Source: Parachitinimonas caeni
GTDB taxonomy: Bacteria; Pseudomonadota; Gammaproteobacteria; Burkholderiales; Chitinimonadaceae
Assembly: GCF_030129945.1 (NCBI RefSeq)
Contig: NZ_JARRAF010000017.1
Location: 1 to 64,000 of the forward strand
DNA length: 64,000 bases
Direction of reading: 5' to 3'
Shown here: piece by piece, positions 5,499-45,587 of the stretch
Layout: every line of letters starts with the position of its first letter
How positions within the stretch are numbered: position 1 is the stretch's first letter
Notes under the pieces: generated by a model
Told to the model about the DNA's origin: nothing
Database searches by the model: none
Seen by the model: the letters and a program-made list of their open reading frames with translations, nothing else
Position numbers and translations under genes: made by a program

Positions 5499-5769
5499 AA
5501 GCAGGAACGGTCTTCGTCGGCGAGGAATGGCAGATTCTCTACGAGCGCTGGCTGTGGCGGCAAGTCTTGTCCGCGTCGATATCCGCCTGCTGGCCCGGCG
5601 TTTGTGGGGGCTACGATACTTTTTATGGTGCTGCAGTCGGAGTTCGCGCATGTGGCAGGCGGTTTTCGTGCTGGATTGCGGTAGTATGGGCGCCGCCCAA
5701 GAGGCCACTTAGAAAACGTCAATAGAGCCTAACTACATATCACCGAATATCAGATTCTGGAGCGAGACC

Positions 5770-7734
5770 ATGTCCGATACTGTCTGGACCCCTAGCCCGC
5801 AAGCAATTGCCCAAAGCCAAATCAGTCGTTTCATTCAATTTGTTAATGCCGAGCATGGCCTCACCCTGCGGAACGATCGCGAGCTGTATGACTGGTCGGT
5901 AAAGGAACTGGCCACCTTCTGGCACGACATGTGGCGCTTTGCGGGTATCCGGGCCAGTCGGCAGCCAGAAGTGATACTGCAGGATGGCGACAATATGCCG
6001 GGGGCCAAATGGTTTGTTGGTGCCCGTCTCAACTACGCAGAAAATCTGCTGTCACGTCGAGATGACGCACTGGCATTGGTGTTTCAGGGGGAAGACAAAG
6101 TCAACCTGAGCCTGACGCATGCCGAACTTTATGATCAGGTGGCCCGACTGGCAGCCACCCTGCGCCGGATGGGTGTGGGCGAGGGCGATCGTGTTGCTGG
6201 GTTCATGCCCAATATGCCGCAGACAGTGATTGCCATGCTGGCGACGGCCAGTCTGGGGGCCATCTGGTCTTCCTGCTCGCCGGATTTCGGTATTCAGGGT
6301 GTGCTCGACCGCTTTGGTCAGATTGCCCCCAAAGTCTTGTTCACCGCCGACGGCTATTACTACAGCGGCAAGCAGATTGATTCTCTGGAGCGTGTCGGTA
6401 GCATCCTGGCGCAATTGCCGAGTGTCGAGAAAGTCGTGGTTGTGCCCTATACCCAGTCTGAGCCTGATCTGGGCAAGCTGGGCGAGTCATCGGGCCGTGG
6501 CGTGGTCTGGAATGATTTTCTGGCTGCCGAGCAGGGGCTGGATATCGTGTTTACCCAGGTCGCCTTCGATCATCCGCTCTTCATCATGTATTCGTCCGGA
6601 ACGACCGGCGTACCCAAGTGCATCGTGCATTCAGTGGGGGGAACCCTGCTGCAGCATGTGAAAGAACACATCCTGCATGGCGATCTGACACGTGACGACC
6701 GGATTTTCTACTACACCACCTGTGGCTGGATGATGTGGAACTGGCTGGTGTCGGCCCTGGCCATCGGCGCGACAGTGCTGTTGTACGATGGATCACCGTT
6801 CCATCCGGGCCCGCGCGTACTGTGGGAATTCGCGGCCAATGCCAAAGCCACCACATTCGGCACCAGTGCCAAGTATTTGTCTGCACTGGAGAAAACCAGC
6901 TATCGCCCTATTGACAAGGTAGATCTGTCAGCGCTGACCGCGGTTTTGTCCACCGGCTCGCCATTGCTGCCGGAGAGCTATGATTTTGTCTATCGCCATA
7001 TCAAGGCCGATATCCGCCTGAGCTCGATTTCGGGCGGCACCGACATCATTTCCTGCTTTATTCTGGGCAATCCCTGCAAACCGGTGGTCCGGGGTGAATT
7101 ACAGCAGCGGGGCTATGGCATGGCGGTGGATATTTTCAACGACGATGGCAAGTCAGTCCGGCAGGAAAAAGGCGAGCTTGTCTGCACTCGACCGTTCCCG
7201 TCGATGCCGATCGGATTCTGGAACGATGCAGATGGCAGCAAGTATCACGCTGCGTATTTCGAGCGATTCGACAACATCTGGTGTCATGGGGATTACGCTG
7301 AATTGACGGCTCATGATGGCATTGTGATTTATGGCCGTTCCGACACAGTTTTGAATCCGGGCGGGGTGCGGATTGGTACGGCCGAGATCTACCGGCAAGT
7401 GGAAACCTTTGCCGAGATTGCCGAGTCGATGGCGGTTGGCCAGGACTGGCAGGGGGATGTGCGTGTGCTGCTGTTTGTGAGGATGCAGCCAGGGTTCACG
7501 CTGACCGACGAGCTGATCAAGCGTTTGAAAGACCAGATCAAGCTGGGCGCCACCCCGCGCCATGTGCCGGCCAAGATCATTGCGGTGGCGGATATTCCCC
7601 GCACCATCAGTGGCAAGATCGTCGAGCTGGCCGTGCGCAATGTCATTCACGGTATGCCCGTCAAAAACAAGGACGCATTGGCCAACCCGGAAGCCCTGCA
7701 GTTATTCGAAAACCTCGCCGAGCTGCAGAGTTGA
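5770..7734 (+). CDS. acetoacetyl-CoA synthetase
   Basis: 654-aa adenylate-forming enzyme with the AMP-binding motif YSSGTTGVPK and an N-terminus typical of acetoacetate-CoA ligases. Confidence 0.85.
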   Translation: MSDTVWTPSPQAIAQSQISRFIQFVNAEHGLTLRNDRELYDWSVKELATFWHDMWRFAGIRASRQPEVILQDGDNMPGAKWFVGARLNYAENLLSRRDDALALVFQGEDKVNLSLTHAELYDQVARLAATLRRMGVGEGDRVAGFMPNMPQTVIAMLATASLGAIWSSCSPDFGIQGVLDRFGQIAPKVLFTADGYYYSGKQIDSLERVGSILAQLPSVEKVVVVPYTQSEPDLGKLGESSGRGVVWNDFLAAEQGLDIVFTQVAFDHPLFIMYSSGTTGVPKCIVHSVGGTLLQHVKEHILHGDLTRDDRIFYYTTCGWMMWNWLVSALAIGATVLLYDGSPFHPGPRVLWEFAANAKATTFGTSAKYLSALEKTSYRPIDKVDLSALTAVLSTGSPLLPESYDFVYRHIKADIRLSSISGGTDIISCFILGNPCKPVVRGELQQRGYGMAVDIFNDDGKSVRQEKGELVCTRPFPSMPIGFWNDADGSKYHAAYFERFDNIWCHGDYAELTAHDGIVIYGRSDTVLNPGGVRIGTAEIYRQVETFAEIAESMAVGQDWQGDVRVLLFVRMQPGFTLTDELIKRLKDQIKLGATPRHVPAKIIAVADIPRTISGKIVELAVRNVIHGMPVKNKDALANPEALQLFENLAELQS

Positions 7735-27611: not shown

Positions 27612-27825
27612 CTAGGTTCTGTTGACGTTTTGTTCTCGGATCGTGTTTCGTCGGATTTGGGCCTGATGCAGGGCGAAAAGTGCGCCGCTAAGTGGTAGGC
27701 CACGCCATTTCCCATCTGGGCGCGCAGGTTGTAAGGCATTGCGATGCAAACCAACAGTCTGGCGGTCAATGCCGCAGCGGGCCCAAATCTGGCGAAGCCC
27801 TCCCTCCTCGCAACGGGGATGCCGT
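27612..27825. repeat. MITE-like repeat, long form, with degenerate right end
   Basis: Left TIR CTAGGTTCTGTTGACGTTTTGTT. The interior is the reverse complement of the copy at 38191-38428. The right TIR is eroded. Confidence 0.7.
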
Positions 27826-33263: not shown

Positions 33264-33802
33264 AAGGATGTCGGCAGCCAGTGTTGAAGGCTGGCTCATT
33301 CGTTTAATTGATCAACCATCCGTTTTTCCATTGCACCAATATCCAGGTATCCGGTTCTGTTGACATTTGAAGTAACCGCTTAATTTTTAAGGGTATCAAG
33401 AAATTTAAAACTCAGATTTCCAATTTAAAATCAATCGCTTGTGTGAGAGGTTCAACAGGGCCTGGCAAGTAAGGGGCTGATGTGGCGGCGCAATCGGCCT
33501 CCTCTCGCTTGCTCCAGTTCGAGGGTGGCTCGGTTAGAATAGCGTCTTTGTCAGCAAAAAATAGAATTTCGAAAGAGCGGCCGCAGGCCGTTTTTCTATT
33601 TTAAATCAGTCATGTGCTGACCAGATGTAGCCCCAATGATGAAGTTCGGCGGCGGCTTGGTCTGATATCCAGCCTATTGTTATTAGGCTCGGTTGACACG
33701 TCTTTTACGGTCGCGTCGGGCGGCAATACTTGACTCGGCGTGACTGGAAACAAAACCTCAACGGTGCCTAACGCACCATTTACCCAAACAGAAATCCGTA
33801 AT

Positions 33803-36379
33803 ATGACGAAAAGTGGCGAATCGAATCACACGCCCATGATGCAGCAATATCTGCGCATCAAAAGTGAGCACCCCGATAAACTTGTGTTTTATCGAATGGG
33901 CGATTTTTACGAATTATTTTTCGATGATGCAGTAAAAGCAGCGCGTCTGCTCGATATCACCCTGACCGCACGAGGTCAGTCTGGCGGTCAGCCCATCAAG
34001 ATGGCTGGCGTGCCTTTTCATTCGGCTGAACAGTATCTGGCGCGGCTGGTAAAGCTGGGTGAGTCAGTCGCAATCTGCGAGCAGATTGGTGATCCGGCCA
34101 CCAGCAAGGGGCCGGTTGAGCGCAAAGTGGTTCGCGTCATTACTCCCGGCACCCTGACGGATTCCGCGCTGCTGGATGACAAACGCGAGAATCGGTTGCT
34201 CGCGATCGTTGCGCATCGAGGCAGGCTGGGTTTGGCTTGGTTGACGCTGGCATCGGGCGAGTTCCGTGTGATGGAAACCGCAGCCGACAAGCTGCCGAGC
34301 GAGCTGGAACGTTTGCGCCCGGCGGAAGTGTTGGTGCCGGAGGATCTGCCCTTGGCGTTGCCGCAGCAGATGGGATGTGTGGTGAAGCGATTGCCTTCCT
34401 GGCAGTTCGATACTGATGCAGCAATGCGCAATCTGGTGCGCCACTTTGGCACTCAGGATCTCTCGGGCTTCGGTGTGGAGCCTGACCAGCCGAACTGGCT
34501 GGCAGTGGGGCCGGCCGGTGCGTTGCTTGAGTATGGTCGCGCCACCCAGGGCGGCGCGTTGCCGCATGTTACCGCGCTGACGGTCGAGACAACGGGGGCT
34601 TACGTCGAGCTGGACGCGGCGACCCGGCGGAATCTGGAGCTGACGGAAACCATTCGTGGCGAGGCAGCGCCAACGCTGCTGTCTTTGCTTGATACCTGCG
34701 CCACCAGCATGGGTAGTCGTCTGCTGGCCCACTGGCTGCATCATCCCCTGCGCCGCCAGTCGAAGATCGTACGCCGCCGTGATGCGACACGGGCCTTGCA
34801 GGAGGACCGTCAGTTCGAGCCGGTACGGCAGGTGCTTGGCGCCGTCCTGGATATTGAGCGCATCGTGTCACGCGTGGCTTTGCGCAGTGCCCGCCCGCGT
34901 GACTTGTCCAGTCTGCGGGATAGCCTGCGTGCCTTGCCTGAGTTGATTCCGCTGTTGCCGGGTAACGAATTGTTGCAGGAACTGGCGCGTCAATTGCCAC
35001 CGCCTGCCGGGGTGCTGGAGCTGCTGCAGGCCGCGATGGCCGATGAGCCCTCGGTTGTGGTGCGGGAAGGCGGGGTGATTCGCGATGGCTACGACGCTGA
35101 ACTCGATGAACTGAGGGCGATCCAGACCAACTGTGGTGAATTCCTGCTGGCTTTGGAGAGTCGCGAGCGTGAGCGCACCGGCATTCACAACCTCAAGGTT
35201 GAATACAACCGGGTGCATGGTTTTTATATTGAAGTCAGCAACGGACAGGCTGACAAAGTGCCCGACGACTACCGCCGACGCCAGACCCTGAAGAACGCCG
35301 AACGCTATATCACGCCAGAGCTGAAAACCTTTGAAGACAAGGCGCTGTCCGCTCAGGAGCGGGCGTTGGCAATGGAAAAACGCCTGTACGAGGCCTTGCT
35401 GGAACAACTGCAGCCCCATGTACCGGCCCTGCAGCTGACGGCAGCGGCAGTGGCCGGGCTGGATGTGCTCTCGACCTTTGCTGAACGCGCCTCCGAGCTG
35501 GATTGGGTTGCGCCGGAGTTTGTTACCGAGCCGACATTGAATATTGTGGCTGGCCGTCACCCGGTTGTGGAGGCGCAGCTTCGTCAGGCACAGGCTGGTG
35601 AGTTCGTCGCGAACGATCTCAACTTTCACGCAGGGCGCAAGCTTCTGCTGATTACCGGCCCGAATATGGGTGGTAAGTCTACTTATATGCGGCAGGTGGC
35701 GTTGATTGTGCTGCTGGCGCACTGCGGCGCCTTCGTGCCTGCCAGAGCGGCCACCATCGGGCCGATAGACCGCATCTTTACCCGCATCGGGGCCTCGGAT
35801 GATCTCGCCGGGGGGCGCTCCACCTTCATGGTGGAGATGACCGAGACCGCCAATATTCTCAACAACTCGGCCGAAGCTTCGTTGGTCTTGATGGATGAGG
35901 TCGGGCGTGGCACCTCTACCTTCGATGGGCTGGCCCTTGCCTGGGCGATCGCCAGGCAGTTGATCGAGAAAAACCGCAGCTACACGCTATTTGCCACCCA
36001 TTATTTCGAGTTGACACGACTGGCCCTCGACTACCCACAGGTTGCCAACGTCCATCTTGATGCGGTCGAACATAAGGACAAGATTGTGTTCCTGCATAGC
36101 GTGGAAGAGGGGCCAGCCAGCCAGAGCTATGGCTTGCAGGTGGCCCAGCTGGCGGGGGTGCCAAGAGAGGTGATCCGGGCGGCACGCAAGCATCTGGCCG
36201 AGCTGGAACAGCAGAGTGTCACTGCATCTGGTCAAGGCGATCTGTTTGCCAGTGCCCCTGTTGTCATCGAGCCGGAACCCAACCCGGCCTTGGAACGTTT
36301 GCTGGCGACCGATGTCGATGAACTCAGTCCGCGTGCAGCGCTTGAGTTGCTGTACGAACTCAGGCGCCTGGCGAGCTAG
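33803..36379 (+). CDS. mutS: DNA mismatch repair protein MutS
   Basis: N-terminal [12 protein letters not shown], Walker [10 protein letters not shown] and a C-terminus conserved with E. coli MutS. The stop TAG lies inside the CTAGG of a repeat TIR. Confidence 0.9.
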
Positions 36380-36403
36380 GTGCTGTTGACGTTTTGCTTC
36401 CGG
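36376..36403. repeat. solo left TIR of the MITE-like family
   Basis: CTAGGTGCTGTTGACGTTTTGCTTCCGG with no matching right end. It overlaps the mutS stop codon. Confidence 0.6.
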
Positions 36404-38190: not shown

Positions 38191-38428
38191 CTAGGCTCTG
38201 TTGACGTTTTGTTCCCCGGCATCCCCCTTGCGGGGGCGGAGGGTTTCGCCGGATTTGGGCCTGCTGCCGTGTTGACTGCCAGGCTGTTGGCTTGCGATGC
38301 AAGCCTTACAGCCTGTGCGCCCAGACGGGAAATCGCGTGGCTTATCACTAAGCGGCGCGCTTTTTGCCTTGCATCAGGCCCAAATCCGACGAAACGCGAT
38401 CCGGAAATAAAACGTCAACAGAGCCTAG
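38191..38428. repeat. MITE-like repeat, complete long form (238 bp)
   Basis: Left TIR CTAGGCTCTGTTGACGTTTTGTT and right TIR AAAACGTCAACAGAGCCTAG. Internal inverted GGATTTGGGCC/GGCCCAAATCC. The right-end CTAG supplies the stop codon of the hydrolase gene at 38425. Confidence 0.8.
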
Positions 38429-39051
38429 GCGCGCCATTGATGGGTGACGATTTCAGCCAGTTGCGTCAAGCGGCCGTGAAAGAAATGACTTACGCCAGGA
38501 ACGACGATGAGGGGAAGGTGCTGTGGGCGGGCCCAGTCGAGCACGGCGGATAATGGAATGACTTCGTCCTGCTCGCCATGTATGACGAGGGTGTCGGCGG
38601 GGACGTGCGGAATGGCGTACTTGCCGCAAGCTGGGCCAGCCATTATCAGGCGTTCGATGGCGCTTTCCCCCAAGCGCTGGGCAAGCCGGGCCTGCACGTA
38701 GGTGCCGAATGAAAATCCTGCCAATACGATCGGCAGGGTACCGTGCTCGGCCTGCACGTAGGCGTACACGGCGGCCATGTCGTCCACTTCGCCCTGGCCG
38801 TGGTCATGTTCGCCCGCACTTTTGCCAACGCCGCGCAGGTTGGGGCAGTAGGCGATGTAGCCCAGGCGCGAGAGGGTCTTGGCCAGGGTATGAACGACTT
38901 TGTTGGTATTGGTGCCGCCCTGGGTCGGATTGGGATGGGCCACGAGGGCGATGCCGCGCGGGGCGCCATCGGTGCTATGCGGCAGCCGCAAGGTGTCCAG
39001 CTGGCCAACCGGCCCATTGATCATCAATGGCTCGAATTGGGGAGCTTTCAC
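38425..39051 (-). CDS. alpha/beta hydrolase (COG2945-like esterase)
   Basis: Nucleophile elbow GFSFG and a C-terminal HF motif. Confidence 0.7.
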   Translation of the reverse strand: MKAPQFEPLMINGPVGQLDTLRLPHSTDGAPRGIALVAHPNPTQGGTNTNKVVHTLAKTLSRLGYIAYCPNLRGVGKSAGEHDHGQGEVDDMAAVYAYVQAEHGTLPIVLAGFSFGTYVQARLAQRLGESAIERLIMAGPACGKYAIPHVPADTLVIHGEQDEVIPLSAVLDWARPQHLPLIVVPGVSHFFHGRLTQLAEIVTHQWRA

Positions 39052-40537: not shown

Positions 40538-40756
40538 AAAGTCGCTGACCTCACCGTGGCGCGCCTGTTTCGCACCATTTTATTGCGCACCGCACCAATT
40601 TGGGTTGACAGCGGAAGGTAAATAAACCGATAATGCGCCCCGTTGAGATGCATTGATTGCTTCTTGATAGTTTCTCCTCTATTTCTCCTTTGTAGAATTC
40701 AGCCCGGATTGTCAAATCCGGGCTTTTTTTTTGAATTTTTCATAAGGAGAAATCCG

Positions 40757-41233
40757 ATGTCCTCTGTAACCCGCATCAGCGCTCAATTGTTGGACACGGT
40801 GACCGCCGCCGCACAATCACTTCCACGCCGTCGGCGCAATCATAATTTTCATAATTCAGATTCGGCAATTTGCCACAGATTATTAAATGCTGTTGAGCCG
40901 GAGAGCTATGTCGCGCCCCATTGTCATCTCGATTCAACAAAAGATGAAATGATGGTTGTGTTGCGGGGCAGCATAGGCATCGTGATTTTCGATGCCGAAG
41001 GCGTTGTGATCGACACTGTAGTGTTGAGCCAAAATGGTCCGGTTTACGGGGTGGATCTCCCGCCGGGCACCATTCACAGCCTTGTGTCCTTAGAGTCGGG
41101 CTCGGTTATTCTGGAAGCCAAGGCTGGCCCCTACCTGCCGCTGTCGGATGAAGAAAAGATGCACTGGGCGCCCGCGGAGAATGCTCCGGGTTGGGAAGTC
41201 TACCGCGACCGGCTGATTGCTCTCTTCAAGTAG
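40757..41233 (+). CDS. cupin-fold protein (WbuC-like)
   Basis: 158-aa protein with a His-containing cupin motif APHCHLDSTKDEMMVVLRGS. The start at 40757 follows AAGGAGA. Confidence 0.5.
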   Translation: MSSVTRISAQLLDTVTAAAQSLPRRRRNHNFHNSDSAICHRLLNAVEPESYVAPHCHLDSTKDEMMVVLRGSIGIVIFDAEGVVIDTVVLSQNGPVYGVDLPPGTIHSLVSLESGSVILEAKAGPYLPLSDEEKMHWAPAENAPGWEVYRDRLIALFK

Positions 41234-45527: not shown

Positions 45528-45587
45528 CTAGGTTCTGTTGACGTTTTGTTTTCGACTGGAAAGTAGAACGTCAACAGCGCCTCGTAC
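45528..45587. repeat. MITE-like repeat, short (60-bp) form
   Basis: CTAGGTTCTGTTGACGTTTTGTTTTCGACTGGAAAGTAGAACGTCAACAGCGCCTCG. Confidence 0.65.

Follow-up and report, generated by a model that had tools for sequence, protein, structure and literature searches.

The repeats scattered through the window (the whole stretch of 64,000 nucleotides, or 64 kb, from Parachitinimonas caeni that was analyzed) are, as judged from sequence comparison, very probably MITEs (non-autonomous DNA transposons) with ends, GGYTCTGTTGACGTTTTG, that serve as recognition ends in a clade of IS5-family insertion sequences (ISs) of small size, 817-859 bp. The common termini, the target with its duplication, an insertion event, the lack of coding capacity and the spread over multiple genomes are all directly observed. 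The current understanding of MITEs is left unchanged, and the window family is an ordinary, well-defined one; what it offers is a checkable MITE/IS pairing in the little-studied, chitin-degrading Chitinibacteraceae.

With up to 3 mismatches allowed, the terminal inverted repeat (TIR) of 23 nt, CTAGGYTCTGTTGACGTTTTGTT, is found 9 times in the window but never in 100 dinucleotide-preserving shuffles; at ≤5 mismatches there are 13 matches, distributed over ten intergenic places. In a looser scan up to 6 mismatches were allowed, and 50 shuffles there averaged 0.18 matches. The family of repeats that a preliminary description had reported for the 64 kb is thus borne out, with its TIR far above the shuffle expectation; the seven loci counted there are all present, but two others (5710-5732 and 33736-33771) had been missed. 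The TIRs in the window measure 23 nt and show 0-3 mismatches.

The long form with both TIRs lies on the minus strand between convergent genes (38191-38428, 238 bp, as originally delimited), and is built of a TIR, a module-A hairpin with an enlarged loop, and the second TIR. The copy on the plus strand at 53032-53210 consists of TIR, module-A hairpin and TIR, with the flanks TTAG…CTAG, and shows 93% identity with the 38191 copy along 100 nt; it had been given as 180 bp starting at 53031, whereas its length is 179 bp. Within its right-end CTAG sits an internally deleted, unstranded mini element of 35 bp (53207-53241), so placed that the two have one CTAG in common. This 35-bp palindrome and its common CTAG had been recognized correctly, with coordinates (53206-53240) that have to be moved by one position; its right end reads CCTGG (CTAGG -> CCAGG). 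The third long form, on the plus strand at 27612 to ~27825, has lost the right TIR and lies where a TetR-family gene and a phosphopantetheinyl-transferase gene diverge, in the space between them. Reverse-complemented, the 38191 copy matches it with 84.7% identity over 216 nt, in agreement with the eroded right end and the inverted interior reported before. The inner inverted repeat of the long forms, GGATTTGGGCC/GGCCCAAATCC, is likewise present, and so are the near-identical spurious peptides, namely EGFARFGPAAALTARLL at 27752-27802 (minus strand) and a version identical in 15/17 residues at 38239-38289.

The short forms, both unstranded, comprise two TIRs and a common center. The one at 45528-45584 (57 bp, center TTTTCGACTGGAAAG) has a right TIR eroded by 5 mismatches and ends three positions before the boundary first assigned to it (45587), while the one at 63340-63395 (56 bp, same center, TTTCCGACTGGAAA) has exactly the extent first given. 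The right half of a short form (GTGACTGGAAACAAAACCTCAACGGTGCCTAA) is found on the minus strand upstream of mutS (33736-33771). The center TTTYCGACTGGAAA, common to the 57-bp form, the 56-bp form and the 33736 half copy, represents a single deletion junction at three loci, from which it seems that the mini form has itself spread. The remaining copies are solo TIRs: a left one on the plus strand at the mutS end (36376-36403, TIR proper 36376-36398), present as described; a right one on the minus strand at the end of the IcmW-like ORF 54081-54626, present but located at 54604-54626 and not at 54607-54627; and a degenerate right one on the minus strand (5710-5732), with 4 mismatches and a flank reading CTAA, in the 61 bp between two divergent genes. 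The mutS gene (about 33805-36379) is flanked by two remnants, 33736-33771 and 36376-36403, the TIRs of which point away from the gene.

Every copy in the window sits between Pfam-supported ORFs (e.g. those of mutS, an alpha/beta hydrolase, a TetR regulator, an M1 peptidase and a GNAT acetyltransferase), inside the copies there are just short, non-conserved ORFs, and tblastn finds no trace of a transposase; the intergenic and non-coding character ascribed to all copies is confirmed in this way. The copies are 85-93% identical to one another, several are truncated, and they may be mostly old and perhaps no longer mobile.

Beyond the window, genomes (one per species, P. caeni not being in the set) were scanned for the exact TIR, which occurs at 16 loci in Chitinilyticum litopenaei and 2 in C. 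aquatile, and also in Chitinibacter sp. S2-10, in the gammaproteobacterium Endozoicomonas numazuensis and in one Anaerolineae MAG contig. The canonical element in these genomes has 269-273 bp, and related 272-bp copies are found in Chitinilyticum and Chitinibacter. Aligned with the 272-bp element, the long forms of the window prove homologous to its first half (72-78% identity over ~65-150 nt); they keep the TIR, hairpin module A and the TIR, without module B. The MITEs of the window measure 35-238 bp and those found elsewhere 63-330 bp, with defined size classes recurring at many loci. A metagenome scan added 93 loci with the TIR. Clustering of the interiors gives at least eight MITE lineages served by this one TIR and without interior similarity, spread over Betaproteobacteria, Gammaproteobacteria (Endozoicomonas), a Chloroflexi MAG contig and metagenomes; one of them has 18 members of 196-236 bp and low GC. 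The occurrence of the TIR across phyla suggests horizontal spread of the IS clade together with repeated independent formation of MITEs, the MAG contig being possibly mis-binned. The copies in E. numazuensis (L007:502-770) and on the Anaerolineae MAG contig (L005:2640-2805) have the same TIR and unrelated interiors.

A plasmid collection searched with the 272-bp MITE gave a single chance match, and viral contigs scanned with the TIR core gave 3 chance matches and no element. Metagenome contigs often start or end in or beside a TIR (L026, L034, L047, L074, L093, L105, L112, L114 and others). Repeats of this kind break short-read assemblies and give rise to spurious ORFs; as strain markers they could be useful. 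A literature search with the TIR strings returned no paper using them in a relevant context. An automated census counts thousands of unnamed Neisseriales MITEs (PMC11602168), and the window elements may already be listed in such a census.

As for the host, the hydrolase encoded beside the 238-bp copy is 100% identical to a P. caeni protein, and the NCBI taxonomy places that species in Neisseriales, Chitinibacteraceae. The window also holds a match to the Rfam family NmsRb, a Neisseria metabolic switch regulator sRNA of Neisseriales type (40640-40729, 75 bits vs a gathering score of 52), which overlaps the start of a mechanically called ORF (40643-41233) with a weak DUF6016 match. At 60006-60092 and 60377-60463 there are tandem gene starts, 82% identical, with type IV pilin-like N-termini, and a sequence similar to these gene starts is found in a Chitinilyticum block (L020:1032-1106).

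The target of the elements can be read from their flanks, which follow YTA|G…C|TAR in 22 IS and 42 MITE copies, with nothing longer repeated and CTAG…CTAG as the commonest pair. Mixed pairs (TTAG…CTAG, CTAG…CTAA and TTAG…CTAA) occur among both IS and MITE copies and are irreconcilable with a duplication of 3 or 4 bp; it follows that TA is duplicated and that the element begins with G and ends with C. An exact paralogous empty site, …GATGCTTT-CTAG-GGCTGCGG…, is present on one metagenome contig (L081:5517-5640) along with its filled counterpart (L081:7183-7418), a 236-bp MITE with flanks 98% identical to the empty site; this pair belongs to a different, low-GC MITE lineage than the window copies. 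A 273-bp copy in C. aquatile (L012:735-1007) corresponds to the sequence GAGCGC-TA-CCGCAG, without a copy, in C. litopenaei (L016:~7241-7262). The orthologous flanks differ by 1 nt per side, so that presence and absence are shown and the exact duplication is not, and the difference means gain or loss after the split of the two species. In the surroundings of the 38191 copy the nearest relatives reach ~70% protein identity, synteny ends downstream of the hydrolase gene, and these relatives yielded no orthologous empty site for the copy. The target-site duplication that the preliminary description had wished to see defined is at hand, as a TA duplication in YTAR.

The tetranucleotide CTAG is scarce in the window, with 40 observed where the base composition predicts 235; nine of these 40 are ends of elements. 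Because the ends of the element are G…C, CTAG is rebuilt at both junctions, and as a result TAG stops stay intact, as in four genes of the window. In the case of mutS, the stop (36377-36379) consists of the target TA and the first G of the 36376 solo TIR; the IcmW-like ORF takes its TAG stop (54624-54626) from the CTAG of the 54604 solo TIR; the alpha/beta-hydrolase gene (38425-39051, minus strand) takes its own (38425-38427) from the right-hand CTAG of the 38191 copy; and the stop codon of the GNAT gene (63392-63979, minus strand) at 63392-63394 comes from the right CTAG of the 63340 short form. The rebuilt CTAG also makes tandem insertion possible, and tandem copies with one common CTAG are observed at 53207 in the window and at L008:5884. 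At one terminus CTAGG has changed to CCAGG (right ends …AACCTGG) in five independent copies (53237-53241 in the window, L004:975-979, L011:7671-7675, L012:1003-1007 and L017:3794-3798). Very-short-patch (Vsr/Dcm) repair, to which textbooks attribute the scarcity of CTAG, would produce just this substitution.

The 272-bp copies fold into a TIR stem carrying two ~100-nt hairpins with a 9-nt mini-hairpin between them; this Y-shaped layout and a length of ~270 bp recur in the Chitinilyticum L004-type, the Chitinilyticum L008-type and the Endozoicomonas L007 element, the interiors of which have no detectable similarity. With z from -12 to -13, the copies have very stable folds. The 238-bp copy, for which a long hairpin had been foreseen, does form a single one with lateral branches (-87 kcal/mol, z = -13). 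In an alignment of 11 sequences 90% of the cells are paired, and both sides have changed in 42 of the 105 pairs, compared with 11.5 in shuffles and 10-14 in slid controls. The both-side changes come mostly from two divergent lineages, with a few compensatory changes within the close Chitinilyticum group. We regard this covariation as a lead and not as proof of selection; it may reflect independent palindromes. We consider it rather unlikely that the interior of the hairpin modules is under selection for its fold instead of being passive filler. Were it so, folded DNA or RNA could be needed for the transposition of TIR-only MITEs, or the host could have co-opted the elements for RNA processing or stability at gene ends, which they would have entered by stop-codon-preserving insertion.

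The stable folds, the pairs changed on both sides and the four copies abutting stop codons would also agree with MITEs that the host, after their arrival, retains for a structured cis-regulatory or RNA function, for example as RNase III substrates or as stabilizers of 3' ends. This is compatible with the main explanation but quite unlikely, as copies are found in either orientation and with all arrangements of genes around them, and many of them are truncated; moreover, the both-side changes derive for the most part from two divergent lineages aligned to the rest. The two copies scanned for promoter-like or terminator-like sites show none above chance, and no copy has a match at the Rfam gathering score, the 238-bp copy reaching just chance level (E = 0.5-0.7).

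The IS side of the pairing was found among the 93 metagenome loci, where ~21 elements of 817-859 bp are bounded by the same TIRs, each pair enclosing one ORF of ~250-258 aa. The IS ORF scores 268.6 bits (cutoff 110) against the NCBIfam model NF033580 transpos_IS5_3 ('IS5 family transposase') and contains the Pfam domains DUF4096, DDE_Tnp_1 and DDE_Tnp_1_2 (PF13340, PF01609 and PF13586) above gathering thresholds. By tblastn, all elements of IS size and many end fragments contain transposase coding sequence. In three IS copies with a DNA identity of just ~70%, the outermost ~30 nt hardly vary, and the terminal 18-21 nt of the MITEs are identical to those of the IS copies L104, L107, L036, L103 and L125. 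Of these, L104:204-1041 and L107:128-986 are metagenome copies with the same TIR, and L125:2926-3784 is an 859-bp IS of the cultured Chitinimonas sp. BJB300 with the full TIR, CTAG flanks and the ends CTAGGCTCTGTTGACGTATTGC… and …GCAAAACGTCAACAGAGCCTAG. The ISs of Endozoicomonas montiporae (ends beginning GGTTCTGTTGAC, flanks TTAG…CTAG) and of an Azotobacter salinestris plasmid (ends beginning GGTTCTGTTGACG, CTAG flanks) match the TIR over the first 12-13 nt alone and likewise encode one IS5-family DDE transposase of ~250 aa each. By their size (~0.8-0.9 kb) and 2-bp TA duplication the ISs may belong to the IS427/IS1031/ISL2-like subgroup. In L033, L046, L076, L077, L087, L100 and L116 the tblastn match to the transposase is split (~residues 9-104 and 124-258), for which either decay or a programmed frameshift of the kind seen in two-ORF groups of the IS5 family could be responsible; the other IS copies have a single intact transposase ORF. 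The IS with matching ends that the preliminary description had proposed to look for therefore exists, and it is of the IS5 family. IS6 and IS903, the ends of which begin GGTTCTGTTG and GGCTTTGTTG, were first considered as parents on account of these ends and were abandoned once the full-length IS5-type elements had been found.

The target alone would also suit another parent. IS630-family elements insert into CTAG and duplicate TA, so that the CTAG/YTAR target and the TA duplication seen here would also be expected of a MITE of IS630/Tc1-mariner type moved by an IS630-family transposase. This assignment is very improbable, because the transposase family is different: all full-length elements with the window TIR encode the DUF4096/DDE_Tnp_1 protein of the IS5 family and not one of IS630/DDE_3 type, and no IS630-family element bounded by GGYTCTGTTGACG occurs among the 93 metagenome and 21 genome loci.

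Equally hard to sustain is the idea that the repeats are decayed fragments or internal-deletion derivatives of one IS, and not an independent non-autonomous family. The solo TIRs at 36376, 54604 and 5710 could derive from either an IS or a MITE, but the sequence beside the first of them, GCTTCCGG, resembles a MITE subterminus and is unlike that of the IS. In a BLAST comparison of 42 MITE with 21 IS copies the alignment is confined to the 19-24 nt termini, which means that the MITEs are not deletion derivatives of the IS body, and defined size classes recurring at many loci argue in the same direction. By tblastn the window holds no trace of a transposase, and the low-GC ORFs of the window, examined for one, gave none.

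The two observations named in the preliminary description as arguments against its reading both turned out the other way: the TIR, rather than being absent elsewhere, is abundant in the other genomes searched, and the copies, rather than being pieces of an IS with a coding body, have a terminus of ~20 nt alone in common with the IS. The designation as MITEs is upheld by the small size, the absence of coding sequence, the TIRs, the many intergenic copies, the size classes, the defined target with duplication and the TIRs matching those of an autonomous IS that could act in trans.

For these MITEs with IS5-type ends we infer from the sequences that mobilization takes place in trans, by an IS5-family transposase of the same clade. 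Against this speaks that tblastn detected no transposase homolog in the 64-kb window or in the 21 MITE-bearing blocks of Chitinilyticum, Chitinibacter and Endozoicomonas numazuensis, and that the 120 best transposase homologs listed include no Parachitinimonas or Chitinilyticum protein; co-residence of MITE and IS in one genome is therefore conjectural, and an active transposase may or may not persist in P. caeni. A ~250-aa DDE transposase (DUF4096 + DDE_Tnp_1), supplied by the IS, would bind both TIRs and insert the element into YTAR, mostly CTAG, with duplication of the central TA. The G…C ends would then rebuild CTAG at each junction and leave a TAG stop that had been hit intact, so gene ends would be tolerated landing sites in a CTAG-poor genome; each insertion would make two new target sites, from which tandem copies with a common CTAG may arise. 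The interior, unrelated to the IS, is made of one or two ~100-nt hairpin modules, and the window copies, which keep one module, would then have decayed by internal deletion to 57-bp TIR-loop-TIR forms and solo TIRs. Such G…C ends, together with TA duplication in CTAG, would provide a simple route to harmless insertion, in which both the TAG stop and the target are restored.

Comparison with known systems places the window MITEs next to the small IS5-family ISs, with which they have in common the terminal 18-21 nt, the flanks and the TA duplication. The IS has 817-859 bp and codes for the ~250-aa DDE transposase, whereas the MITEs have 35-287 bp, are non-coding and resemble it in the termini alone. 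REP/REPIN palindromes mobilized by a RAYT enzyme (IS200/IS605-like, HUH) are also short, hairpin-forming intergenic repeats, and the 57-bp forms superficially look like REPIN doublets, yet REPs typically carry a GTAG head, and the 23-nt arm of the window family has none, is not self-complementary, is identical to the TIRs of a DDE IS and goes with a TA duplication at a defined target, which leaves this origin a negligible chance.

The Correia (CREE/NEMIS) elements are abundant intergenic MITEs of Neisseriales, the order of the host according to NCBI; they too use TA as target and come in several size classes that arose by internal deletion (PMC2649163, PMC10969869). Their hairpin transcripts are RNase III substrates (PMC2649163, PMC10969869) and their mobilizing enzyme is unknown (PMC2649163). 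The term 'Correia-like' used in the preliminary description is apt as an analogy, but the published Correia termini are missing from the window: the terminal repeat TATAGYGGATTAA… (patterns from PMC2649163) has 0 window matches at ≤3 mismatches for both groups. The two TIR sequences are unrelated, sizes and interiors differ, the window copies show no detected promoter-like sites, and the window TIR family has an evident transposase, in contrast to Correia; a divergent member of the neisserial family is thus scarcely conceivable.

The closest analog in logic is the pair MITEAba12/ISAba12 of Acinetobacter, in which identity is confined to the TIR sequences (PMC6382973). Like the window MITEs, MITEAba12 is linked to its IS through the TIR alone, is non-coding and is presumed to be mobilized in trans (PMC6382973), and the terminal motifs are similar, GGCTTTGTTGCACAAA (GGCTTTGTTG…) in MITEAba12 and GGCTCTGTTGACGTTT in the window family. 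MITEAba12 has 113 bp, is AT-rich, generates 9-bp duplications and has no CTAG target (PMC6382973); the window family differs from it in the TA duplication within YTAR and in its interiors of hairpin modules.
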